A stretch of DNA of 19,626 bases from a virus (lineage: Duplodnaviria > Heunggongvirae > Uroviricota > Caudoviricetes). Location: the IMG/VR virus record IMGVR_UViG_2757320620_000001, positions 95,417-115,042 of that record; one strand, 5' to 3'. Positions 3,507 through 17,273 of the stretch are shown piece by piece (positions within the stretch are counted from its first letter, which is position 1; each line of letters starts with the position of its first letter). Under the pieces are notes generated by a model that did not search any database, was not told where the DNA came from, and saw nothing but the letters and a program-made list of their open reading frames with translations. The position numbers and the translations under genes were made by a program.

Positions 3507-3701
3507 CTATTCGCTGTAACGCGTCTCATGACGCATATTCAGCATTTCATATATGTCTGTCTGCTGATAGTCGAACCGACGGTCCAGCAATTCCACACTG
3601 TCAGTCGTCGCGTTGCGCGTCTTGAAGTCGCGTCGCTTCTGTCTGTCTCTCAATTCGCGCTCTGTGAGCGATACGCGCGCGCTGCTATATGATTTGCTCA
3701 T
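3507..3701 (-). CDS. Probable small protein, 64 aa, second gene of the island transcript
   Basis: Lies between the 3779 stop and the 3459-3487 terminator; AAGAG RBS-like sequence; no recognisable family. Confidence 0.5.
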   Translation of the reverse strand: MSKSYSSARVSLTERELRDRQKRRDFKTRNATTDSVELLDRRFDYQQTDIYEMLNMRHETRYSE

Positions 3702-3778
3702 GTCTCTTGTCTCGCTTCTGTGACGCTGCTAGCGCGCTTTATGACGCGCTAGCTAAGTCAAGATTGATTGATCACGCG

Positions 3779-4345
3779 TTACGCTGCAAAGCGCGCTTCG
3801 ATCGCTTGCATAATCGCGTTGTCGTTGACAGTATACTTGTCTTTCGACGCTGCTTTCAGCAAGTTGAGCGCAACAAGAGCGCGCATGTTCATCGAAGCAT
3901 GACGCTTCGCAGAAGAGAATTCATCTTTGCGACGATAGTAAAGCGCGACGCGTTCTTTCGCGACTTTGATATTCTTGTCGAGCGCGATTTCAATGTCGCT
4001 TGCGCTGAACTGCTCACCAGCGCGCTTGAAGTTGACGAGCGTGCGCAGCACTTCTTCAACGTTGCTCTTGAGCTTGTCGACGTTGCGAGCGTTCGCAGCG
4101 AACTCGAGAATATGCGCGCAATTCTCGAGTGCTTTCATGCAGAACGCGCTGTTAGCTTGCACGCTGTCTTGTGCAAAGTCTGTCTTCACTTCGCACGCTT
4201 CGAGCATCTTCGCGACGCTGTCTTGTGTGACGACAAGCGCGCACTTCGATATGAAGTTGAGCGAGTTTGCAGACTTCTTTGCTGCAAGCTCTACGTCGTA
4301 GCGAGCAGACAGAGACAGTGCATATGCGTTAACAACTTTAGTCAT
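3779..4345 (-). CDS. GG/CC-free paralog of 839-1537, 188 aa (1 Gly, 0 Pro, 0 Trp)
   Basis: Start chosen at MTKVV after aaagagagaaacgatc. Aligns to 839-1537, e.g. AYALSLSARYD/AFALTIAAAFD, LVNFKRAGEQFS/MLNFEAAGATFT, ASMNMRALVALNLL/ASSTLNAMMALGLI. Confidence 0.85.
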   Translation of the reverse strand: MTKVVNAYALSLSARYDVELAAKKSANSLNFISKCALVVTQDSVAKMLEACEVKTDFAQDSVQANSAFCMKALENCAHILEFAANARNVDKLKSNVEEVLRTLVNFKRAGEQFSASDIEIALDKNIKVAKERVALYYRRKDEFSSAKRHASMNMRALVALNLLKAASKDKYTVNDNAIMQAIEARFAA

Positions 4346-4425
4346 GATCGTTTCTCTCTTTCGTGTTGACTGTCTAGCAGTCGTTGTTGACATGATCTTT
4401 AGACACTAGTTCGCAGCGTCATGCA

Positions 4426-4449
4426 ATAGCTATTTCGCTAAATCGCGAA
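4426..4449. promoter_or_regulatory. 8-mer cluster at the island promoter
   Basis: atagctat ttcgctaa atcgcgaa, abutting a TTGCAT -35-like box on the minus strand. Confidence 0.6.
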
Positions 4450-4816
4450 TTATTTTTCATAGCATAATTGCTATGTGATGATACGTGCGCATTGACTCAC
4501 AGAGACGCGCTGACACGCATAGACGCGTGAGCAGTGTCACGCGACACAGAAGCGCGTCGATCGATCCCTCGCGCTCGTGTGTGTCGCTGTGAAAGCGCGA
4601 CGTGCGAAGAGAAGCGAAGTCTTAGAGATTTTGCGTGTGGGTCAGCATGATGCCCACTGCTGCCCGGCAAATCCGGTGCTCCGACTACCTATCCCAGTGC
4701 CTTACCGGGACGGACAGCATGCCCTGGGTAGCGATCCGTCAACCAGATCCCCGGCGCCCAGGTTCCCCTGCCCCGCACCCCCGATTCCCGTGCCCAAGCT
4801 ACCCATCCTCTTTTCA

Positions 4817-5762: not shown

Positions 5763-6143
5763 ATGCCCAACAAAGAACCCTCCCTCCCCTTCGGCTTCCC
5801 GCTCGAGGGCATTCCGCTCGCCGGCAAGTTCCCTGAGAAGGACGTCGTCATTCAGGGCGACACGATCTATGCCGGTCTGATCGCTCCAGATGTGACGCTC
5901 CACACTCCCCTCCCCGTGACCGGCTATACGCCCGTCGAAGACGACAAGGTTCAGCTCGTGAACTCGATCAAGATCGAAGAGGAACGCATCCTGCGCCGGC
6001 TCGACGAGCTGAAGGCGGGCGGCCAGAAATACGACCAGCGCTTCGTCGCGCTCGCCATGACCTACGTGCAGGTGGGTATGATGCTCGCCTACCGCGGCGT
6101 CTTCCAGCCGGAACGCATCACCCTGCCCGAGGACGCCGCATGA
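5763..6143 (+). CDS. acb2: Acb2/Tad1-hairpin-like nucleotide-signal sponge with an N-terminal extension
   Basis: C-terminal TGY...VQLVNSIK...LDEL...DQRFVALAMTYVQVGMMLAYRGVFQP matches the Acb2 pattern GY..N.IK..RW.AI..T..Q.G.M...RA..QP. Confidence 0.65.
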   Translation: MPNKEPSLPFGFPLEGIPLAGKFPEKDVVIQGDTIYAGLIAPDVTLHTPLPVTGYTPVEDDKVQLVNSIKIEEERILRRLDELKAGGQKYDQRFVALAMTYVQVGMMLAYRGVFQPERITLPEDAA

Positions 6144-6592
6144 GCGTTGTCGTCTATCACGACGGCGTGATGGCTGCCGACAGTCGAGCCTATTCGGGCT
6201 CGACGCACCCGGCCGGCCACAAGCGCAAGATCCACCGTCTGCCCGACGGTGGCCTGGTCGGGATTACGTCCAATCAGATCGGCATGCCGGAAGCGTTTCG
6301 CGACTGGCTGGCTGCCGGCGCAAACCGGGAAGCTTCTATGCCGAACGAGCCTGGCTTCGACGCCCTGCACGTCACGTCGGACGGCGAGGTCTTCCTCTAC
6401 AGCGACAGCTATACACCGTCTGGGCCGCTCTACGGCACGACCTTCACGATCGGCTCAGGCAAGGCATATGCCCTCGGCGCCCTCAAGGCCGGCGCTTCGG
6501 TCACAGAGGCCATCGAGATTGCCAAGGAATGCGACCTGTGGTGCGGCGGGCCGGTTATCGAACTGCCTCTCTACGAAGACACCAAACCCTGA
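6140..6592 (+). CDS. Ntn-hydrolase / proteasome beta-subunit-like peptidase with N-terminal Ser
   Basis: (M)SVVVYHDGVMAADSR, KRKI, TIGSG..A.GAL..GAS..EAI.IA..D...GGPV pattern; ATGA overlap with the upstream gene. Confidence 0.8.
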   Translation: MSVVVYHDGVMAADSRAYSGSTHPAGHKRKIHRLPDGGLVGITSNQIGMPEAFRDWLAAGANREASMPNEPGFDALHVTSDGEVFLYSDSYTPSGPLYGTTFTIGSGKAYALGALKAGASVTEAIEIAKECDLWCGGPVIELPLYEDTKP

Positions 6593-6846: not shown

Positions 6847-7125
6847 TCAGCCGCGGCGTGATGCCGTCCAGGCGTCGAAGCACTGCTCGAGCAGCTCCTT
6901 CATTGATAGCCCGGCCGCGGTCGCCGTCATCTTGAAGCGGGTGTGAAACTCCGGATCGACCTTGAAATTCAGGTCGCGCAGCTTGACCTCTTCCATGTTG
7001 TCGGCAGCCTCGATCTTCGGCTCGTCGACCAGGCTACCGAGGAACTTCATGCCGCCTGTCTGCTCCCTCGGCCGGATATTGGCCTTGGTCACTGCAGTCG
7101 TCTTTGTGGCTACTGGTCTTTTCAT
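6847..7125 (-). CDS. ParG/omega-like ribbon-helix-helix centromere-binding protein, 92 aa
   Basis: C-terminal DLNFKVDPEFHTRFKMTATAAGLSMKELLEQ has the beta-alpha-alpha RHH pattern; overlaps the parA stop. Confidence 0.8.
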   Translation of the reverse strand: MKRPVATKTTAVTKANIRPREQTGGMKFLGSLVDEPKIEAADNMEEVKLRDLNFKVDPEFHTRFKMTATAAGLSMKELLEQCFDAWTASRRG

Positions 7126-7763
7126 GCGGCTACCTGCAGGGAGTTGAGCTTGTCGACGATCTCGGCTGCGAGCCGGTCGGCGCGATCATTGAGCGAGGAA
7201 TAGAGCGTCTCGGCAATCGAGAAGCCACGGTTCTGGGCCATCTGATAACCGGTCTTCGACGTGATATCGGTCTCGGCGACTTCAAAGCCCTGCTCCCGGA
7301 TGAATCCTGCCGCCTCGCGAGACGCCAGGTCGCTTTCAGTCGTCTTGTTGAGGACGAAGAGCAGCTTGTGGCGCGCAACGCCCTTGTTGGCGAGCTCGTG
7401 GGCGAAAGCGATCTGTGGTTTCAGGTCGTCGCGAGTGGCGCCGGTCGGTATGATCACGACGTCGGCGATCTGAGCTGCGTCCAGGGACGTCTGCTGGCTG
7501 TCCGGCGCCCCGTCGATAACAAGCAGGTCATGACGCTCTGCCTTCACCTTCTTGACGGAGTTCATCGGCTGGGCCTCGATCACCGGCTCGATGTTGGCGA
7601 TCATCCGGATTGCCACCCAGTCGGTCGAGGTGAGCTGGTTGACGTTGAAGTCGCAGATCTTCACCGACCAGCCGACGGAAGCGAAGGTGCGCGCCAGGAG
7701 CCGGGCGATCGTCGATTTGCCGACGCCACCTTTCTGAGACAGACATGCGATGATGGTTGCCAT
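7122..7763 (-). CDS. parA: Short type Ib ParA (ParF-like) ATPase, 213 aa
   Basis: Deviant Walker A QKGGVGKST, ICDFN, VIDGAP, VIIPT; lacks an N-terminal HTH. Confidence 0.95.
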   Translation of the reverse strand: MATIIACLSQKGGVGKSTIARLLARTFASVGWSVKICDFNVNQLTSTDWVAIRMIANIEPVIEAQPMNSVKKVKAERHDLLVIDGAPDSQQTSLDAAQIADVVIIPTGATRDDLKPQIAFAHELANKGVARHKLLFVLNKTTESDLASREAAGFIREQGFEVAETDITSKTGYQMAQNRGFSIAETLYSSLNDRADRLAAEIVDKLNSLQVAA

Positions 7764-8970: not shown

Positions 8971-9144
8971 CTAATTCTCCTGCTCGAGAAGGCCGCGGTT
9001 CTTGGCGCGCTCGACAAGCCGGGTCAGCCGCTCATTGTCGGCGCGCAGCTTCTCGATCACCTCGAGGTAGAAGACCTCGCTGACGGCCGACAGGCCGCAG
9101 GAGTTGAAGAAGTGGATCGGGTCGACGAGGCGCTGCTGGCTCAT
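8971..9144 (-). CDS. Small coiled-coil hypothetical protein, 57 aa
   Basis: AAGGA RBS; the ATG overlaps the helicase TGA. Confidence 0.65.
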   Translation of the reverse strand: MSQQRLVDPIHFFNSCGLSAVSEVFYLEVIEKLRADNERLTRLVERAKNRGLLEQEN

Positions 9145-10739
9145 GCTGCTTTCCTTTGTGCTGCGAAGATCTGCCAGGGGAAGTCCTCGTTCGCCGGCAA
9201 GATGTTCTCCCGGAAGCCGGGCGTGGATTTGACGATGTTCTTGCGTTCGGCCGTGTGCTCGGCGAGCGCAATGTTGTTGGCGCATGAATAGTCGGCGATG
9301 AAGGCATAGTTCGGCATATTTTTCTTGGCGCGCAGCCCGCGGCCGATCCGCTGACGCAATGCCACTTCCGCCTTGCCACCACCGGCAAGCTGCACCAGGC
9401 CGATACCGGGCACGTCAACGCCGACATCGACGATCGTCGAGCCGATGATCGCGTCGATTTCGCCGGCCTCGAGCTGCGACAGGGCGGCCTGGCGCTCCTT
9501 CTGGTCGTTCTCACCACGCAGGAACACCGTGCGCAGCCCGACATGGGTGAACTTCTTGAAGAGGATCTCGCCATGATCCATGCGCTGGATCAGCGTCAGC
9601 ACCGGCAGCCCGTAGCGCTTCGCCATCAGCGCGTCACGCACGATATCCTTGTGCATGAAGCCGTTCTCGATATAGCCGAACTGATAGGCGCGCGCCCAGG
9701 GCGACGAGCGGAACAGCATCTTGTGCGGCTGCGACGTCACGTATTTGAAGATCGGCTTGGCAAGCACGCCGGACTCGATCAGCTGCTCCTCGGTGATGCG
9801 GATCAGCACCGAGCCGAAAGCGGCCATCAGGCGCATGTTGTCTTCGGCGCTGGAGCGCATGAACGGCGTTGCGGTGAGCGCCACCCGGATCGTCGCGTTC
9901 TTGCAGTGCTTGAGGATCTCGTAATAGCTGTTGCCGCCCGCCTCATGGGCTTCCTCGCCGATGACCACGTCGATCAGCTCGAGGAACTTCAAATAGCGAT
10001 TTCGCTTTTTCGTCTTTTCGTCAAAGCGCGCCTGGGCCAGTTCGCGGATCTGCTCCTTCGGCATATTCGCATCCTTCTTCTTCGAACGATGCTGCGACTT
10101 GGTGACGGCGATGATCTCCTTCTGCAGGTTCGGCTCCTCGAGCGCTTCGACGAGCGTCTGCACCATGGCGAGGTTGACGCCCTTGACCATCTTCTCCTTG
10201 CCGTCGCCGATGACGCCGGTGTTGAGATCGAGCGCGTCGAGCTGCTCCTTCATTTGGTAGAGCAGCACCTTGCGCGTCGTCAGGAAGAGGGTAGGGCGCC
10301 GGTAGCGCAGCATGATCATCTTGGCGATCTTCGATTTGCCACCGCCCGTTGCGACCTGGATGATGCCGCGGCCGAACTTCTCGACGCGCCGCAAGCTCTC
10401 CGGCTGGTGAGCGTAGCGCGGATCGTCATTGCCGAATGCATCGACGATCGGATTTTCGGGGCCGAGCGGCTCGACGGCCTTCTTCCGGAAGATCTGCACC
10501 TTGTAGCCGAGCCGCATCAGCTCCTTGTGGACCATGAAGGCAAAGCCGGCCGGGAAGGAGTTGGTCTTGTATTCGTAGAAGGACGATTTGCCATCCCAGG
10601 TGCCCTGGTTGAACGCAAAGGTCTGCTCGGCGCCGTCGACCAGGTAGGAGAGCAGGTCCGAAACGGTGTCGGCGACCTTCTCGGGCGGGTCGAGCAGCTG
10701 GGCGGTGACTGCGTTGTAGGCCAGTTTGATCAAAGTCAT
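9141..10739 (-). CDS. Superfamily 2 DNA helicase (UvsW/XPB-like), 532 aa
   Basis: ATGGGKS, VIGEEAH, LTATP, GSTIVDVGVDVP and QRIGRGLR motifs. Confidence 0.9.
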   Translation of the reverse strand: MTLIKLAYNAVTAQLLDPPEKVADTVSDLLSYLVDGAEQTFAFNQGTWDGKSSFYEYKTNSFPAGFAFMVHKELMRLGYKVQIFRKKAVEPLGPENPIVDAFGNDDPRYAHQPESLRRVEKFGRGIIQVATGGGKSKIAKMIMLRYRRPTLFLTTRKVLLYQMKEQLDALDLNTGVIGDGKEKMVKGVNLAMVQTLVEALEEPNLQKEIIAVTKSQHRSKKKDANMPKEQIRELAQARFDEKTKKRNRYLKFLELIDVVIGEEAHEAGGNSYYEILKHCKNATIRVALTATPFMRSSAEDNMRLMAAFGSVLIRITEEQLIESGVLAKPIFKYVTSQPHKMLFRSSPWARAYQFGYIENGFMHKDIVRDALMAKRYGLPVLTLIQRMDHGEILFKKFTHVGLRTVFLRGENDQKERQAALSQLEAGEIDAIIGSTIVDVGVDVPGIGLVQLAGGGKAEVALRQRIGRGLRAKKNMPNYAFIADYSCANNIALAEHTAERKNIVKSTPGFRENILPANEDFPWQIFAAQRKAA

Positions 10740-10779
10740 GAAATTTCTCGTTTGCCTGTTGCCTTGTTTGGCGGATATG

Positions 10780-10799
10780 ATAAATCAATATTTACTGAC
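10780..10799. promoter_or_regulatory. 20-bp palindromic operator, site C (divergent helicase/ParB promoter region)
   Basis: ataaatcaatatttactgac, one mismatch. Confidence 0.75.
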
Positions 10800-10826: not shown

Positions 10827-11573
10827 ATGACATATCCGAAGATGATGGAGCTCGATCCGGGCTCCCTGCGACCGAACCCCTGGAACACCAACATCGTTAC
10901 GCCCGAGAACGAGACGAAGTTGGAGGAGTCCATTCGACGCCTGGGCTTCTTCCGTCCGGCCGTCGTTCGCGAAATCGCTATTTCGGGAAATAGCGATCCG
11001 AGCGCATACGAAATCCTGGGCGGGGAACACCGCGCGCAGATCGCGGCGAAGATGGGTCTGAAGACCATCCCGGTCGTGAACCTTGGTCCGATCGATGATC
11101 TGAAGGCCAAGGAGATCGGCATCGCCGACAACTCGCGCTACGGCATGGATGACCAGATCGCCTTTGCCGACCTCATCAAGGGCATGGGCAACGCAGAGCA
11201 ACTGAAGGACTTCCTTCCCTATACCGAGCATGATTTCACCGATCTGTTCACAACATCAGAGATAGATCTGGATTCACTGGGTCTTGAAGAAAACTTCGAA
11301 AAGGAAGCGGAAAAAGACGCTGTCGAGGAGCCGGTCCAGCCAAAGGCCGCAAAGACCCACACGATCATCCGCTACAAGGTCTCCAACCGCGACGCCGAAG
11401 ACATCACCGCGCTGATCGAGCGCACGATGAAGGACAACGGCTTCACCTCCTCCGACGAGCTGACCAATGCCGGCGACGCCCTGGTGCATCTGCTGCTGGC
11501 CGGCAAGAACCAGGCGGCCGCGCAAGACGAGCTCGATGCGCTCGAGGATCTGCTTGACGAGGATGCCGCATGA
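10827..11573 (+). CDS. ParB/Srx-like N-terminal domain protein, 248 aa
   Basis: LRPNPWNTN, SIRRLGFFRPAVVR, ILGGEHRAQIA. Real start at MTYPK; the long upstream extension in the ORF track is helicase antisense. Confidence 0.85.
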   Translation: MTYPKMMELDPGSLRPNPWNTNIVTPENETKLEESIRRLGFFRPAVVREIAISGNSDPSAYEILGGEHRAQIAAKMGLKTIPVVNLGPIDDLKAKEIGIADNSRYGMDDQIAFADLIKGMGNAEQLKDFLPYTEHDFTDLFTTSEIDLDSLGLEENFEKEAEKDAVEEPVQPKAAKTHTIIRYKVSNRDAEDITALIERTMKDNGFTSSDELTNAGDALVHLLLAGKNQAAAQDELDALEDLLDEDAA

Positions 11574-11752
11574 CCTTCGTCCGGCCCAAATTCGACGACT
11601 GCAAATCCTGCGTCTTCTTCCTGAAAAACCGAGTGAACCCGATCTGTGGCGAGTGCGACAGCGGCGAGTTCTACGAGGAAAAGATCCGCTCACGCGAGAA
11701 GACGCGCCACGAACTCATGGAACTCTACGGGGAATATCACGATGACGAATAA
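11570..11752 (+). CDS. Small Cys-rich protein (CxxC-x11-CxxC), 60 aa
   Basis: CKSC and CGEC motifs; overlaps both neighbours. Confidence 0.75.
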   Translation: MTFVRPKFDDCKSCVFFLKNRVNPICGECDSGEFYEEKIRSREKTRHELMELYGEYHDDE

Positions 11753-12404
11753 GGCCGTCACGCTGGTCGCTGTTGCCGACCTGGTGCCATACGAGAACAA
11801 CGCCAAGAAGCACTCCGACGAGCAGGTCGAGAAGCTGATGGCGCTGATCAGTCGCTACGGCTGGACCTCGCCGATCGTCACCGACAAGGATCTGGTGATC
11901 ATTGCCGGCCACGGCCGGCGCCTGGCTGCCATCAAGCTTGGTCTGGAGAAGGCGCCGGTCATCATTCGCGACGATCTCAGCAAGGAAGAGGCGGCAGCCC
12001 TGCGCCTGGCCGACAACCGCGTCGCGTCGACCGAATACGATCTCGGGCTCGAGCAGGCCGAACTGTCCATGCTGTCGGACGTCGAGGGTATCGACCTGAC
12101 GATGCTTGGCTATTCCGAGCACGAGCTGGACTTTGCGACCGCCGACCTGATCGACATGGACGACACGATCTTCGTTCAGGACGTCGGCGCTGCGGTCGAG
12201 CAGCAGAAGGCCGAAAACGAGCAGAAGGTCAAAGAGGTCGACGATGTCGCCGCACCGGTCGCCGATGCGCTGGGCTTCAAGCGCGTGACGATCGCCGAGA
12301 GCCGCAAGATCCGCGACCTGATGTCCCGCATCGAACAGCGCTCCGGCTACAAGGGCGTCGAGGCGCTGATCTATGTGCTCGAGACCTCGGAGCTGCCTGC
12401 ATGA
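11742..12404 (+). CDS. Second ParB/Srx-like domain protein, 220 aa
   Basis: LVPYENNAKKH, YGWTSPIV, IIAGHGRRLAA, LRLADNR: the type usually found beside phage DNA-modification and terminase genes. Confidence 0.9.
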   Translation: MTNKAVTLVAVADLVPYENNAKKHSDEQVEKLMALISRYGWTSPIVTDKDLVIIAGHGRRLAAIKLGLEKAPVIIRDDLSKEEAAALRLADNRVASTEYDLGLEQAELSMLSDVEGIDLTMLGYSEHELDFATADLIDMDDTIFVQDVGAAVEQQKAENEQKVKEVDDVAAPVADALGFKRVTIAESRKIRDLMSRIEQRSGYKGVEALIYVLETSELPA

Positions 12405-12820
12405 GCGAGGTCATCGATTTGAAGACCCGCAAGCCCTTTGCGCTCGCCCGCTCGGAAGAGCGCAAGCAGAAGCGCGCAGCCAGCCGCAAGGCTAGAAAGC
12501 AGGCGGCCGACGCGGTGATGGAACACCGCGACGCCATGGTCGAGATCCTCGAAGGCCTTTTGAAGATGACGCGGGAAGGGCACCTCGAGGGCCTGGTGCT
12601 GCTGTCGCGCGACACCAAGCACAAGATCTTCCTGACCGAGATCCTGCTCGATGACCGGATCATCCCGCCAAATGACCTGCATGCCTTTGTCGGCGTCATG
12701 GAGACGCTGAAGCTCGAGCTTGCCGACCAGGCGGCCGCGACAGCGCCGGCGCTGCTCATCGGTGGCGAGCGGCTCGATCCGACTGCAGAGCCTATCGAAC
12801 CAGATTGGGAATACGAATGA
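12401..12820 (+). CDS. Hypothetical protein, 139 aa
   Basis: ATGA overlaps on both sides. Confidence 0.8.
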   Translation: MSEVIDLKTRKPFALARSEERKQKRAASRKARKQAADAVMEHRDAMVEILEGLLKMTREGHLEGLVLLSRDTKHKIFLTEILLDDRIIPPNDLHAFVGVMETLKLELADQAAATAPALLIGGERLDPTAEPIEPDWEYE

Positions 12821-13461
12821 CCATCTACACCATCAATTGCGGCTTCACCTCGTCGGTGGAGCGCAGCCCGCGCGTGCTGGAGATTGCCGAGTCCTTCGGG
12901 CTGGGACTGGCCGAGAAGCGGTTTGAGATCTACCGCGATCTTGCGCTCGATATCCGCGACGACGACGTGATCTATATCAACGGTCAGTCCGGCTCCGGTA
13001 AATCGCTGCTGCTGCGCGAGCTGACCCGCCAGATGCGCGAGCAGGGCAGGGTGGTCGCTGACCTGAACGAGGTGGTGCTTGATGACCGGCCGGTGATCGA
13101 CCAGCTCGGCAAGACCAGCAGCGACGCCCTCTATCTGCTTGCATGCGCCGGGATCTCCGACGCCTGGATCTATATCCGCAAGCCCTCGGAGCTCTCCGAC
13201 GGCCAGCGTTATCGTCTGAAGCTGGCAAAGGTCATGGAGACCGACGCCGATGTCTGGGTCGCCGACGAGTTCGGCGCCGTGCTCGACCGCGTCACAGCCA
13301 AGGCGATCGCCATGAGCGTCCAGAAGGTCGCTCGCCAGCGAGGCAAGAGCCTCATCGTCGCAACCACCCACACCGACCTCGAAGCCGAGCTGGCGCCGAA
13401 CCTCGCCGTCTACAAGCGCTTCAAGGAAAAGGTCGATATCACCAAAGGAGAAGCAGCATGA
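12817..13461 (+). CDS. Soluble ABC-type ATPase (COG2401-like N-terminal half), 214 aa
   Basis: GQSGSGKS Walker A, LSDGQ signature, VADEF Walker B, ATTH H-loop; no TM partner. Confidence 0.9.
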   Translation: MTIYTINCGFTSSVERSPRVLEIAESFGLGLAEKRFEIYRDLALDIRDDDVIYINGQSGSGKSLLLRELTRQMREQGRVVADLNEVVLDDRPVIDQLGKTSSDALYLLACAGISDAWIYIRKPSELSDGQRYRLKLAKVMETDADVWVADEFGAVLDRVTAKAIAMSVQKVARQRGKSLIVATTHTDLEAELAPNLAVYKRFKEKVDITKGEAA

Positions 13462-13760
13462 ACCTCGGTCAAGCCCTTGAGGCGGTAAAAGATGGCAAGC
13501 GGGCGGCCCGCGCCGGCTGGAATGGCAAGAAGATGTTCGTCTTCCTGATGCCGGGCTCGGCGCCGCGGTCGACCGAAGTCACCACACGCGACGGCGTCGA
13601 CCTGATCAACAACGTCCGGGGCGATCTCTTTACCGACGGCGACGAAGGCACATCGATCCGGATGCCGTCTTTCTGCCTGAAGGCGGCCGACGGCTCGACG
13701 GTTGTCGGTTGGGCGGCCTCGCAGGCCGACATGGGCGCCGAAGACTGGGAGCTCGTCTGA
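13458..13760 (+). CDS. tad2: DUF2829 / Tad2-like nucleotide-signal sponge, 100 aa
   Basis: MNLGQALEAVKDGKRAARAGWNGKKMF ... GWAASQADMGAEDW: both family signature ends are present; AAGGAG RBS. Confidence 0.8.
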   Translation: MNLGQALEAVKDGKRAARAGWNGKKMFVFLMPGSAPRSTEVTTRDGVDLINNVRGDLFTDGDEGTSIRMPSFCLKAADGSTVVGWAASQADMGAEDWELV

Positions 13761-13960
13761 TGGCGAAGGCACCGGTCTATCGCACCACAAAGGATATCGT
13801 CATCCCTGCCGGCACAGAAGTCGGTCTCGGCCCGGTCACCTCGCGATATCTCACCGATCATGGCGAGGTGATCATCGGCTTCGACAAGGACACGACCGGC
13901 AGCCTGCGCTTCGACCTGGAAGAGGCGCTGCAGCTCGGCTTGATCGAGAAAGCCGAATGA
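13760..13960 (+). CDS. Hypothetical protein, 66 aa
   Basis: TGATG overlap with the upstream stop. Confidence 0.7.
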   Translation: MAKAPVYRTTKDIVIPAGTEVGLGPVTSRYLTDHGEVIIGFDKDTTGSLRFDLEEALQLGLIEKAE

Positions 13961-14067
13961 CGAAATCGCTAATTCTTGCTTTCGCTATTTCGCTGCTGGT
14001 GAGCGCCTGCACTGCGGGAGCACCCGCATACGCAAAACTCGACGGAGCGCGCTGTGAACGAACCTGA
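13957..14067 (+). CDS. Putative micro-lipoprotein, 36 aa
   Basis: MTKSLILAFAISLLVSAC signal peptide with lipobox; ATGA overlap. Confidence 0.5.
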   Translation: MTKSLILAFAISLLVSACTAGAPAYAKLDGARCERT

Positions 14068-14938
14068 GCTGATTGTGCAGCGTTTCGAGAACCCTCGAGC
14101 ACGCTTCACGCTGGCCGACGACATGTTTGTCGAACGCGGCACGGCTGCCGACTGGGAGCTGCTGCACGATCTCCACTACAAGGCTGAAAAGCTGCCCTTC
14201 GCGCCGAAGTTCTGGCGCCTGGTGATCGGCACCGACACGATCGGCGTGCTGGTCACCGGCGCGCCCAAGGGCATGCTGCGCGAGCGGCACCTGGTCTTTC
14301 CGAAGATCAAGCCTAACGGGCAGGATACGAAGATGACCAACACCAATCGCTTCGTCTACCTCAACAAGAACTTCCGGGTGATCTCGCGGTTCGTCGTCGA
14401 TACGATGTATCGCGGCATCGGCGCCGGCTACCGGATGATGAACCTGGTCAGCCGTATGGAGGCTGCTGATCCTGCCAAGCCGCTGAAGGTGATCGAGATC
14501 CAGTCGTCGATGTCGAAGTTCAACGTCTTCGGCCAGAAGGCGGGCTTTCAGTTCGCCGCACCCCAGAACGCCAACAAATACGACGCCGGCATGAAGTTCT
14601 TCCGCTCGCATTTTCAGGCGACGCCCCAGGACTTCGAGGCGATCGTCCAGGAGATCGAAGCCTCGGCCGATCCGGAGAAGCTGGCGCAGGCCTGCCGGGA
14701 TTTCTATCTGCGCAACTCGGCGATGGAAAACACCGGTGCTGCCCGCGACAAGGCGCAGGAGAAGGTTGCCGCGATGAGCGTGCGCGACCTGGTGAAGGGC
14801 ATTCAGCAGGTGAGCCTGGCCTCGCCGATGTATGGCGTCTGGAAAGCCGTCGACAAGCCGGGCTCGGTGCCCGACCGGCTGCCGCTGATGGCGTTCGACT
14901 GCCAGGGCACGTCCGAACCTTTGAAGTGGAAGCCGTAA
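14054..14938 (+). CDS. GNAT-fold acetyltransferase-like protein (COG2401-like C-terminal half), 294 aa
   Basis: LHDLHYK, ISRFVVDTMYRGIGAG acetyl-CoA motif A, SSMSKFNVFGQKAGF. Confidence 0.85.
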   Translation: MNEPELIVQRFENPRARFTLADDMFVERGTAADWELLHDLHYKAEKLPFAPKFWRLVIGTDTIGVLVTGAPKGMLRERHLVFPKIKPNGQDTKMTNTNRFVYLNKNFRVISRFVVDTMYRGIGAGYRMMNLVSRMEAADPAKPLKVIEIQSSMSKFNVFGQKAGFQFAAPQNANKYDAGMKFFRSHFQATPQDFEAIVQEIEASADPEKLAQACRDFYLRNSAMENTGAARDKAQEKVAAMSVRDLVKGIQQVSLASPMYGVWKAVDKPGSVPDRLPLMAFDCQGTSEPLKWKP

Positions 14939-15181
14939 ATGGCGATGATCCGCAGAGGGGAGAAACACCGCGAGATCGCCGAGATCATTCTGAAGGCGGC
15001 CGACACCGGCCGGTTTCTGACCGTGACCGAGATCCACGAGAGCCTTTCCTACGGCTGCGCTTACGGCTCGCTCCGGAAGATCATCAAGCTTTTCGAGGAA
15101 CGTGACTGGGTGACGAAACAGCGGGCCGGCATGTCCGTTCTGATTAAGCCAAACATGCTTCTCTACCGGTGGTTCCGGTGA
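14939..15181 (+). CDS. Winged-helix DNA-binding protein, 80 aa
   Basis: Helix-helix-recognition helix-wing pattern (LTVTEIHESL...YGSLRKIIKLFEERDWVTKQR). Confidence 0.7.
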   Translation: MAMIRRGEKHREIAEIILKAADTGRFLTVTEIHESLSYGCAYGSLRKIIKLFEERDWVTKQRAGMSVLIKPNMLLYRWFR

Positions 15182-15185
15182 GCTT

Positions 15186-15266
15186 TCCGGTCCGTCTCCC
15201 TTCTATGTATTTAATATCTAATAGTTAGTTAAAGATATAAGATACTATGAAGGGAGTTGGACCGGA
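15186..15266. repeat. AT-rich core flanked by inverted arms, copy 2 (upstream of terS)
   Basis: tccggtccNNctcccttc ... gaagggagNNggaccgga around a 45-bp AT-rich core. Confidence 0.85.
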
Positions 15267-15284
15267 TTGAGCGCGCGTGTTACG

Positions 15285-15304
15285 ATAAATAAATATTGAT
15301 TGAC
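15285..15304. promoter_or_regulatory. 20-bp palindromic operator, site D
   Basis: ataaataaatattgattgac, one mismatch; just upstream of the terS-like gene. Confidence 0.75.
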
Positions 15305-15312
15305 TGGTTCCG

Positions 15313-16002
15313 ATGATGACTGAAGAAACAACTGCTCCGGCGAACGAAGAAATTGCTGACGTAAAGGCCAAGCGGCTCTCGGATGCGGAATACGCCGAGG
15401 CCAAGGAACTCTATGAGCTCGGCACGATGCGTCTGTCGGAGCTCGGCGAGAAATACGACGTCTCCCGGCAGGCACTGTGGCGTCGTTTCAAGCAGGATGG
15501 CGTAGAATACGGCTCCAGAGCGTCAGAGGTGAGCGCCGCGGCATCGGCTGGTGTCAAGGCAGCGACGACGCAGGCTGCGGTTCAGCAGGTCGCTCAGCAG
15601 CAGGAGCGCTACAACGACAAGCGCGCCGAATGGATCGAGGAAACCAGGACTGCCGGCTACCGGGCGCTGAAGCAGGCCGACATGCTGGCAAAGAAGATCG
15701 TCACCGACGCCATCAAGGCGGCCGGGGCAGGGGCTATTCCCTCCGGCGCGATCGCTGCGACCAACGAAGATCTGAAAGCCGTCCAGCGCTACCAGAAGAT
15801 CCTGGTCGAAAACACCCTGACCAGGCTCGAAGTCCTGCGTGCCAATGAGCTGATCGACGAAGACGATCTGCCGGAGATCCATTTCGAGGATCTGACCGAC
15901 GACGACATTCTCTCGCACCACAAGGAGAACGGCCTGATCGACGAGGGCGAAGATCCGGATGCGATCCTGGCCGAGATCAACGCGGTGGAGATTACCGCGT
16001 GA
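15313..16002 (+). CDS. Probable terminase small subunit, 229 aa
   Basis: N-terminal HTH (LSELGEKYDVSRQALWRRF), long helical middle, overlaps the terL start. Confidence 0.7.
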   Translation: MMTEETTAPANEEIADVKAKRLSDAEYAEAKELYELGTMRLSELGEKYDVSRQALWRRFKQDGVEYGSRASEVSAAASAGVKAATTQAAVQQVAQQQERYNDKRAEWIEETRTAGYRALKQADMLAKKIVTDAIKAAGAGAIPSGAIAATNEDLKAVQRYQKILVENTLTRLEVLRANELIDEDDLPEIHFEDLTDDDILSHHKENGLIDEGEDPDAILAEINAVEITA

Positions 16003-17273
16003 GCGCACCGCTTGTTTTGAAGGCGCACCGCGGTCAGAAGATCGTTCTGAAGGATAAGCGCCGCTTCAAGGTCATCGTCGCCGGCCGACGCTGGGGCAAG
16101 ACGCAGATCTCCAAGATCGCGCTGATCAAGGCGGCCGTCAGCCGCAAGAATCAGCTGTGCTGGTATGTGGCGCCGACCTATCAGATGGCCCGGCAGATCC
16201 TTTGGGACGACCTGAAGCGCTCGATCCCGAAAGCGCTGATCGTCTATAACGGCATCAACGAGACCCGGATGACCATCCGGCTGATCAACGGCTCGCGCAT
16301 CGAGCTGAAGGGCGCCGACAATCCCGACACGCTGCGCGGCGTCGGCATCAACTTCCTGGTGCTCGACGAAGCCCAGGACATGAAGGAGGACACCTGGAAG
16401 ACGGTTCTGCGTCCGACGCTCGCCTCGACGGGCGGCCAGGTCATCTTCATCGGCACGCCGAAGGCCTTCAACTGGCTCTACGACATGTATGTGCTCGGTC
16501 AGCGCGGCGACACCTACCGCGACGACAAGGGCAAGATCGTCGTCAATTCGTGGAAGAGCTGGCAGTTCCCGACGATCATGTCGCCGTTCATCCCGCGCTC
16601 GGAAATCGAGACGGCTCGGCGCGAAATGGATCCGAAGAGCTTCCGCCAGGAGTTCGAGGCCTCCTTCGAATCGATGTCGGGCCGCGTCTACTATCCGTTC
16701 GACCGGCGCACGCATGTCGGCGACTATCCGTTCAATCCGAAGCTGCCGATCATCATCGGCCAGGACTTCAACATTGATCCGATGAGCTCGGTCATCATGC
16801 AGGAGCAGGCAAACGGCGAGATCTGGGTGATTGACGAAGTGATCTTGCTTGGCTCCAACACCCAGGAGACGGCCGACGAACTCGGGCGCCGCTATCACCG
16901 GCACATCAACAATATCACGATCTATCCGGACCCGGCCGGCAACAACCGCACGCACGCCCGCGGCGAGTCCTCGCTCGAGATCCTGCGCGACGCCGGCTTC
17001 AAGCGCATCAAGTTCCATCGCAAGCACCCGCCCGTTGATGACCGCGTCAACGCCGTCAACCGGCTGCTGCTTGACGCCGAGGGCACGATCCGCATGAGGT
17101 TCGACCGCAAGTGCAAGCACACAATCGATGCAATGGAGCAGACGATCTACAAGGCCGGCACCCGTGACGTCGACAAGAAGGCCGGCGTCGAGCACCCTGC
17201 CGACGCGCTCGGCTACTTCGCGGAGTTCGAATATCCGGTTCGCAAGGTTCGCATCCTCGGTGTCTCTCTGTGA
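15999..17273 (+). CDS. terL: Terminase large subunit, 424 aa
   Basis: AGRRWGKT Walker A, LVLDEAQ Walker B, IGTP, GQDFN nuclease motif, HPADALGY. Confidence 0.95.
   Translation: MSAPLVLKAHRGQKIVLKDKRRFKVIVAGRRWGKTQISKIALIKAAVSRKNQLCWYVAPTYQMARQILWDDLKRSIPKALIVYNGINETRMTIRLINGSRIELKGADNPDTLRGVGINFLVLDEAQDMKEDTWKTVLRPTLASTGGQVIFIGTPKAFNWLYDMYVLGQRGDTYRDDKGKIVVNSWKSWQFPTIMSPFIPRSEIETARREMDPKSFRQEFEASFESMSGRVYYPFDRRTHVGDYPFNPKLPIIIGQDFNIDPMSSVIMQEQANGEIWVIDEVILLGSNTQETADELGRRYHRHINNITIYPDPAGNNRTHARGESSLEILRDAGFKRIKFHRKHPPVDDRVNAVNRLLLDAEGTIRMRFDRKCKHTIDAMEQTIYKAGTRDVDKKAGVEHPADALGYFAEFEYPVRKVRILGVSL

Follow-up and report, generated by a model that had tools for sequence, protein, structure and literature searches.

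What is the function of a run of ParB-like, ABC ATPase and GNAT genes that lies beside the terminase genes of a phage? The question is raised by positions 10,827–16,002 of a 19.6-kb window (by which we mean the whole stretch of DNA analysed, 19,626 nucleotides), which forms the right end of a 115,042-bp viral genome, positions 95,417–115,042 of IMG/VR record IMGVR_UViG_2757320620_000001. The initial annotation, made from the sequence alone, saw in this module a candidate writer of a DNA modification. Here we favour, with a confidence somewhat short of even, the reading that it is the split-gene form of a phage ABC-ATPase/GNAT module, which, late in infection and with help from the ParB-like proteins, would use ATP and transfer acyl groups to the phage DNA. 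For the window itself the main gain is a negative one: the link that had been proposed between the module and a nearby island almost free of GG and CC does not hold across relatives.

The module region is 95% identical to that of Rhizobium phage RHph_Y2_11. About 29 cultured phages, with genome sizes of 84–122 kb, are related to the window genome; they comprise Rhizobium phages, Pseudomonas Nickievirus, Stenotrophomonas and Xanthomonas phages, and the SSU5-like phage-plasmids of Salmonella, Klebsiella and Escherichia. The window element is a Rhizobium phage-plasmid, and the module belongs to the core of a phage-plasmid lineage of about 100–120 kb. Among sequencing data, Logan contigs of rhizosphere metagenomes share sequence words with the window, in small shares only; the listing gave no raw or nanopore reads and no RNA entry.

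The ABC and GNAT proteins as two halves of one enzyme

The key observation comes from searching exhaustively with a GNAT-family profile, which returned 348 cluster representatives. Many of these are 440–560 residues long, with the match located at residues ~200–480, and the long matches carry both the ABC_tran and the GNAT domains of Pfam. The fusions came from this search; a word-indexed search for longer forms gave one unrelated-looking protein of 1475 residues. The ABC protein of the window is 39–49% identical to the N-terminal halves (residues 1–226) of two of the fused proteins, P0181 and P0182, and the GNAT profile matches residues ~205–480 at 1e-14. The window ABC protein also matches phrog_293 at 3.5e-44. 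The fused protein P0182 is predicted to form one compact unit (pLDDT 87, pTM 0.82), and the separate ABC and GNAT genes overlap directly in two phages, Cyrano of Escherichia and ANB28 of Stenotrophomonas. Judged by homology, the ABC and GNAT proteins are the two halves of one enzyme, which many other viruses encode as one chain. The ABC ATPase/acetyltransferase fusion invoked in the initial annotation is borne out in that both halves are homologous to single ABC-GNAT polypeptides; membership of COG2401 itself comes from source names only.

Fused relatives are encoded by at least 572 IMG/VR viral contigs. One relative is P0221 (666 aa), which consists of a ParB N-domain, a zinc ribbon, an ABC domain and a GNAT domain, in the same order as the window genes, so that here too the zinc ribbon sits between ParB and ABC. 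Its ParB N-domain is 47% identical to ParB2 of the window over its core, and its gene is located shortly upstream of a terS-like gene, TerL and a portal gene. The neighbourhoods of the best 80 of the IMG/VR loci were analysed. A TerL homologue abuts the fused gene on the same strand in 51 of them, and Pfam Terminase_6N was confirmed in four of the five tested. Other partners of the relatives are also DNA-centred, and include a neighbouring DNA ligase, a DnaB/gyrase module and a neighbouring ASCH gene.

Some fused forms carry further domains. Two representatives, P0230 and P0237, have ABC::GNAT fused behind a family-B DNA polymerase (PolB). Among P0230, P0237, P0187 and P0177, one carries within its ABC domain an intein that has a LAGLIDADG domain, and one has a C-terminal TFIIB repeat, and an archaeal virus may be the source. 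The 80 loci were also considered for a physical genome end after ABC::GNAT, given that 31 of them stop no more than 300 bp past the gene, whereas no locus starts close to it. The pattern is probably the result of provirus trimming at gene boundaries rather than a genome or prophage end, 12 contigs stopping exactly on the stop codon (L052, L059, L065, L068, L069, L070, L083, L096, L104, L114, L119 and L120). In L038 the gene is followed, on the opposite strand, by genes for an aminotransferase, a PALP enzyme and an aldehyde dehydrogenase.

The sequence of the ABC protein contains all the elements of an ABC nucleotide-binding domain, namely the Walker A, the Q-loop region, an LSGGQ-type signature, the catalytic Glu of Walker B and the H-switch. 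Walker A (G-Q-S-G-S-G-K-S), the signature (L-S-D-G-Q), Walker B (D150-E151) and the H-switch (H185) are invariant in 31 homologues. No gene for a permease or membrane subunit is found in the operon, and the best score of the ABC protein against the NCBIfam transporter families is 58 bits, below every cut-off (131–966). The earlier description of this ATPase as transporter-less is therefore correct, and it is predicted to be a soluble minimal ATPase with one nucleotide-binding domain.

The GNAT protein was modelled with AlphaFold2 on 36 homologues (pLDDT 80). The model matches solved GNATs with Z 11–12.4 over 128–160 residues, which identifies the fold, and its matches among AlphaFold database clusters are named N-acetyltransferase. 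Motif A reads Y-R-G-I-G-A-G and is invariant, and its R120 and G123 are among the residues that are invariant from the split to the fused forms (H41, Y42, R78, R112, R120, G123 and E148). The model places an 80-residue helical insert between the fifth and sixth strands. The core is basic, with a pI of 9.9. PADLOC places neither ABC nor GNAT in any defence system, and gives generic ATPase matches only.

The ParB-like pair, the zinc ribbon and the winged-helix protein

ParB1 consists of a ParB/Srx-fold N-domain and an acidic C-terminal half, and ParB2 is its distant paralogue (26% identity). Box II of the ParB/Srx fold, with the GxxR arginine, is found in the two proteins as G-G-E-H-R and A-G-H-G-R-R. 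The N-domain of ParB2 matches the ParB domain that phages fuse to DNA methyltransferases (phrog_498 at 3e-36, and the N-terminal region of PADLOC MTase_II at 3e-22). A Pfam search for HTH_ParB in ParB1 and ParB2 found none, and scores against the partition family TIGR00180 are 28–31 bits (31.5 for ParB1) with a cut-off of 58. Nothing in the window matches the parS consensus within 3 mismatches. Both proteins are strongly acidic (pI 4.4 for ParB1 and 4.6 for ParB2, with C-terminal halves of ~4.2), which is unusual among DNA-binding ParBs.

A phage ParB homologue that has a nucleotide-binding N-domain and a C-terminal domain, and no obvious DNA-binding domain, has been found to activate a post-replicative thymine dioxygenase (5mYOX) on double-stranded DNA (O'Toole et al., PNAS 2026, PMC13229309). 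By analogy, acidic ParBs that lack a DNA-binding domain fit such an activator role. Their properties would also fit the nucleotide-binding versatility of phage ParB folds, which are mostly fused to DNA methyltransferases when they occur as ParB-CTPase folds in phages (PMC12704722).

The winged-helix-like protein (wHTH) is the conserved last gene of the module and has a pI of 9.9. Its own family matches are weak, and its positional counterparts match phrog_900 at 2e-46 in the Klebsiella phage and 2e-08 in nickie. The orf139 protein has no match in Pfam, PHROG or PADLOC, with Atlas leads below 0.9, and tblastn finds it only in RHph_Y2_11 and V1VFA-S.

Organisation and conservation of the module

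The features of the region are collected in Table 1. A coupled run of ParB, ParB, CxxC, ABC, GNAT and wHTH genes had been described, and every element named is present on the + strand, but four further genes were missed: orf139, a Tad2-like DUF2829 gene, orf66 and a 36-aa lipoprotein-like open reading frame (ORF), the last three of which lie between ABC and GNAT. Successive genes overlap or abut, the junctions being −4, −11, −4, −4/−16, −4, −1, −4, −14 and 0 nt. The position given for the module, directly upstream of terS and terL, is right as to order, but the AT-rich spacer intervenes before terS. The module has its own promoter-like site, which is overlapped by a palindrome of the family AGTCAA-NN-TTGACT. 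This family has five copies in the window (at 3756, 4820, 8912, 10783 and 17285, with 1–2 mismatches), with 0.36 expected. The copies are found at gene junctions, one of them between terL and the portal gene, and the copy at 10783 is the one that overlaps the promoter-like site.

Table 1. Features of the module and its surroundings (window coordinates).
Feature	Position	Strand	Matches and remarks
Type Ib-like partition cassette	ParA 7122-7763 (213 aa); ParG-like ribbon-helix-helix protein 6847-7125 (92 aa)	-	~3 kb from the ParB pair
UvsW-like SF2 helicase	9141..10739	-	Divergent from module; Pfam ResIII 7e-16, Helicase_C 1e-09, UvsW_N 1e-04
Promoter-like site overlapped by operator-like palindrome AATCAATATTTACT	10752..10796 (palindrome 10783-10796)	+	Own promoter-like site of the module
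ParB1	10827..11573	+	Pfam ParB_N 1e-08, 35.5 bits (cut-off 26.3); phrog_723 4e-62
60-aa CxxC...CxxC zinc-ribbon-like protein	11570..11752	+	C11-x2-C14, C26-x2-C29; between ParB1 and ParB2
ParB2	11742..12404	+	phrog_930 3e-90; Pfam ParB_N 24.3 bits, slightly below the 26.3 cut-off
orf139	12401..12820	+	Lineage-specific, Rhizobium phages only
ABC ATPase, 214 aa	12817..13461 (ATG; alternative TTG at 12805)	+	ABC_tran 2e-12, 48 bits
Tad2-like DUF2829 protein	13458..13760	+	Pfam PF11195 5e-23, 81.8 bits (cut-off 25), full profile length
orf66	13760..13960	+	Slot cargo
36-aa lipoprotein-like ORF	13957..14067	+	Slot cargo; overlaps start of GNAT gene
GNAT-fold protein, 294 aa	14054..14938	+	phrog_886 3e-127 (2.7e-127); Pfam only 5e-3
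Basic 80-aa winged-helix-like protein (wHTH)	14939..15181	+	Penicillinase_R 5e-3, phrog_900 2e-3 (both weak)
AT-rich spacer, 131 bp	15182..15312	.	Gap between module and terS
terS	15313..16002	+	phrog_867 2e-61
terL	15999..17273	+	Terminase_6N 1e-09, phrog_2 6e-57

All seven gene tables that were read share the order helicase, ParB, ParB, ABC, GNAT, wHTH, terS, terL; they represent phages of seven host genera and include RHph_Y2_11, V1VFA-S, Pseudomonas nickie, Stenotrophomonas ANB28, Xanthomonas JGB6 and Klebsiella ST13-OXA48phi12.3. Since the same order is kept across these relatives, the arrangement is not due to chance. In SSU5 the module is found at the right end of the record, with terS and terL at the left end; the view of Cyrano is limited to ABC, GNAT and the following DNA-binding gene. 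The divergent helicase neighbour is kept in all relatives, and is 40% identical at the same position in nickie, SSU5 and the Klebsiella phage.

Counting every genome with both ABC and GNAT gives nine, across which identity is 50–58% for ABC and 41–65% for GNAT, compared with 57–64% for terL. For V1VFA-S, nickie, SSU5 and the Klebsiella phage the values are 51–58% (ABC), 41–64% (GNAT), 57–64% (terL) and 48–59% (portal), with the ParBs and helicase at ~40% across the same relatives. On these identities the conservation of ABC and GNAT is close to that of terL and portal, which is the behaviour of core genes and not of morons. The module is thus a strongly conserved core set of a large phage-plasmid lineage, to which the SSU5-like elements found in Salmonella, Klebsiella and E. 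coli also belong.

The junction between the split genes

The ABC and GNAT genes, which overlap in Cyrano and ANB28, are separated by unrelated small genes in nickie, the Klebsiella phage and the Rhizobium phages, and the junction is therefore a cargo slot. Cyrano and ANB28 have nothing in it, the cargo of nickie and of the Klebsiella phage is unrelated to that of the window, and there is a Tad2-like gene (DUF2829, Thoeris anti-defence 2-like) in both the window and V1VFA-S. In the window this gene is translationally coupled inside the module. We propose that the three intervening genes, the Tad2-like gene among them, are anti-defence or moron cargo unrelated to the enzyme. orf66, which is common to the window and V1VFA-S, has no family match in Pfam or PHROG. 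The 36-aa ORF has a textbook lipoprotein signal (…L-L-V-S-A-C…) and a sub-threshold match to T4_Spackle (E 0.012).

Elsewhere in the window, at 5763–6592, a protein with an Acb2/Tad1 hairpin domain (Pfam 5e-13) has a coupled neighbour that is proteasome/HslV-like (a weak match, 2e-4). Together with the Tad2-like gene this gives two candidate cyclic-nucleotide sponges in the window.

Possible functions of the module

DNA-base acylation is the leading idea because the ABC and GNAT proteins form one unit, the GNAT core is basic, and the associations of the family are DNA-centred: TerL, a type of ParB otherwise fused to DNA methyltransferases, PolB fusions, and DNA ligase and ASCH neighbours. The idea was already in print. 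As to substrate, acyl donor, target base and the role of the ParBs, we infer the following. Late in infection the ABC domain would use ATP and clamp or open replicated phage DNA, and the basic GNAT core would move an acyl group from acyl-CoA onto an exocyclic amine of a base. By analogy with the ParB-dependent thymine dioxygenases, the acidic ParB-like proteins may function as nucleotide-dependent activators or loaders on double-stranded DNA, and the wHTH protein may tether the complex. The packaged DNA would end with a protective or regulatory mark.

Several observations weigh against this proposal. The best 80 fused-form loci form only three clusters at 50% identity, so that the adjacency to TerL represents a few lineages and not 51 independent events. 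ParB was detected in two of the 80 (a lower bound, from a home-made hidden Markov model of low sensitivity), and would therefore appear not to be obligatory, and one fused gene lies in a replication module, distant from any terminase. By sequence, the ABC domain resembles the transporter-type nucleotide-binding domains of LolD, MacB and OpuCA, and not SMC, Rad50 or UvrA. ParB1 and ParB2 are acidic and have no recognisable DNA-binding domain. The match of the GNAT fold is generic, RimI, SpeG, Naa50/60 and Mom tying at Z 11–12, which leaves room for protein, polyamine or RNA substrates. Finally, we found no experimental work on members of the family, and SSU5-like phages, Nickievirus and these Rhizobium phages are not known to have a modified base. 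The papers searched likewise make no mention of COG2401 and have nothing on N4-acetyl-deoxycytidine in phage DNA, and the LF82/Cyrano paper is silent on the module genes.

The strongest competitor, which we regard as unlikely but worth serious consideration, is a packaging-linked acetyltransferase whose substrate would be polyamines that are packaged with the DNA, or else a protein, either of the phage (terminase, portal or capsid) or of the host (nucleoid or defence). RimI, Naa50/60 and SpeG are the top structural matches, the module is tightly adjacent to TerL, acidic ParBs would suit a role as protein adaptors, and the ABC domain is of the transporter/ABC-F type rather than the SMC type. 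However, the fusions and neighbours of the family are PolB, ligase, methyltransferase-type ParB and ASCH, and not structural proteins, and the GNAT core is strongly basic. An ATPase partner is, moreover, unusual for GNATs that act on proteins, and is known for TmcA and NAT10.

The last point leads to RNA. Acetylation of cytidine in tRNA or mRNA, by an enzyme functionally analogous to TmcA/NAT10 but with another kind of ATPase, seems to us improbable. NAT10 and TmcA are among the first Foldseek hits of the GNAT model (E 3e-4 to 3e-3), with TM 0.26–0.34 and over the GNAT part only, but they are not among the 50 Z-score entries listed for it, and the Mom match, at Z 11.4, is no closer than those of other GNATs. 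One fused relative adjoins an ASCH gene, and ASCH proteins hydrolyse N4-acetylcytidine (PMC6972931). In nickie, tRNA genes lie just upstream of the helicase; the window itself, when scanned for tRNA genes and Rfam families, gave no match. In addition, no tRNA-binding domain is evident in the module, and the carriers of the fused form are mostly small contigs in which the gene abuts TerL.

The GG/CC-free island

A more elaborate version of the modification hypothesis had been put forward, in which the module acylates C or G in GG/CC context at packaging, and the island, a recoded paralogue and the CCNNGG arrays all follow from the mark. We consider this very improbable, for reasons that come from a comparison of the nine module genomes.

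The island itself is real. Positions 3593–4566 of the window contain one GG/CC, against ~100 expected, at ~50% GC, and this extreme stretch is unique in the 115-kb genome. Kilobase islands are found in four of the nine genomes, namely the window genome (RHEph10), RHph_Y2_11, V1VFA-S (23661–24939) and, remarkably for a Pseudomonas phage, nickie (103937–105073). They measure 888–1279 bp without any GG/CC, or ~970 bp with a single one in the window genome, and are always 6–10 kb upstream of ParB1. ANB28 (105624–105797) and JGB6 (85184–85437) have runs of 174–254 bp at the syntenic place, with GC of 45–46% and no GG/CC where 19–26 are expected. This consistent position upstream of the module speaks for a single system, as does the phased CCNNGG array described below.

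The comparison across genomes speaks the other way. Five of the nine module genomes are without a kilobase island, and in three of these, SSU5, Cyrano and the Klebsiella phage, no GG/CC-free run is found beyond AT-rich spacers. The ABC and GNAT proteins of the genomes that lack islands are as similar to those of the window as are those of nickie, and fused ABC::GNAT occurs in many small phages of other lineages. Among these nine genomes the expected co-variation of ABC and GNAT with islands is not seen: the module is constant and the island is not. The sequence also holds nothing on base or context specificity, and the similarity to NAT10/TmcA is generic, so that acylation in GG/CC context finds no footing here. 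The conservation of the module does not follow the gradient of the island, which means that the module alone cannot explain the island and that the reading of island, paralogue pair, CCNNGG arrays and module as one system is not supported. Since the link to the module fails across relatives, the island needs a separate explanation.

It is still conceivable, if only just, that an ATP-driven acyl mark placed on DNA at packaging became GG/CC-specific, through the mark or its reader, in the branch with GC-rich hosts (Rhizobium, Pseudomonas and perhaps Xanthomonadaceae), and that the upstream early operon was purged of the dinucleotide. Were a GG/CC-specific mark real, it would represent a new chemical class of DNA modification, with a recoding footprint on the scale of the genome.

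The island proteins of the window genome have tblastn homologues only in RHph_Y2_11. A list of genes that the island genomes share and that SSU5 and the Klebsiella phage lack consists mostly of off-frame ORFs. Seven CCNNGG boxes, mostly CCAYGG, lie within an ORF at 492–571, six of them at ~10-bp spacing (515–566). Smaller pairs at 10 bp are found at 1620/1630, 1704/1714, 1749/1759 and 3314/3324. The boxes look like phased protein-binding sites.

Comparison with known systems

By its sequence the module is neither a transporter, nor the partition system, nor a known defence system. That the database annotation is right, with ParB1 and ParB2 a plasmid partition pair and the ABC protein a transporter subunit, has next to no likelihood, because, although the element is a phage-plasmid and its records read 'putative partition ParB-like nuclease protein' and 'ABC transporter ATP-binding protein', there is a separate ParA/ParG-like cassette, the ParBs have no helix-turn-helix and score far below the NCBIfam partition cut-off, and the ABC protein has no permease gene, falls below the transporter cut-offs and is fused to GNAT elsewhere. 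The labels 'ABC transporter' and 'partition ParB' are therefore routinely wrong for this module. With ParABS it shares the ParB/Srx N-terminal fold, but the pair has no adjacent ParA, helix-turn-helix domain or parS. The ParB-DNA methyltransferase fusions have an N-domain like that of ParB2, whereas the ParBs of the window are free-standing, with no methyltransferase domain and with an acyltransferase adjoining. In the thymine dioxygenase system the partner is a dioxygenase and not an ABC-GNAT, and the likeness to ParB1 and ParB2 is one of architecture.

Mom of phage Mu, which modifies adenine N6 in DNA, has the same GNAT fold (8bv8, Z 11.4, rmsd 3.5 over 146 aligned residues). Unlike the window GNAT it stands alone, with no ATPase or ParB partners. 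The structural match ties with dozens of unrelated GNATs, and a Pfam search for the Mom family PF25680 gave no match at E ≤ 0.1.

TmcA and NAT10 resemble the module in coupling a GNAT domain to an ATPase; they act on a nucleic-acid base, as the module is predicted to do. Their ATPase is a helicase-type module, whereas that of the window is an ABC domain; the window enzyme has no tRNA-binding domain, and outside the GNAT fold there is no sequence homology. The analogy drawn with them in the initial annotation goes no further than the generic GNAT fold: the Foldseek matches are weak, and by Z-score TmcA and NAT10 are no closer than RimI or SpeG.

We know of no demonstration so far of ATP-dependent GNAT acylation of DNA. 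If the published prediction is true, the DNA of these phages would contain a base acylated by a GNAT that depends on ATP, and SSU5, Cyrano, nickie and the Rhizobium phages are cultured and genetically tractable members. The prediction itself, that a GNAT working with an ABC ATPase puts an acyl modification on DNA bases, was made by Iyer, Zhang, Burroughs and Aravind (NAR 2013) and restated in Viruses 2021 (PMC7824862). That this family modifies DNA is thus already a prediction in print; the GG/CC specificity and the unity with the island were the new element, and it is these that fail the comparative test. The idea of the family is the same, and JGI and the Cyrano record give homologues the corresponding label, 'ABC-type ATPase with/fused to a predicted acetyltransferase domain' (MK0520-like). 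Compared with the predicted system, the enzyme of the window is split, has lineage-specific cargo between its halves, and has as companions a zinc ribbon, a wHTH protein and two paralogous ParBs.

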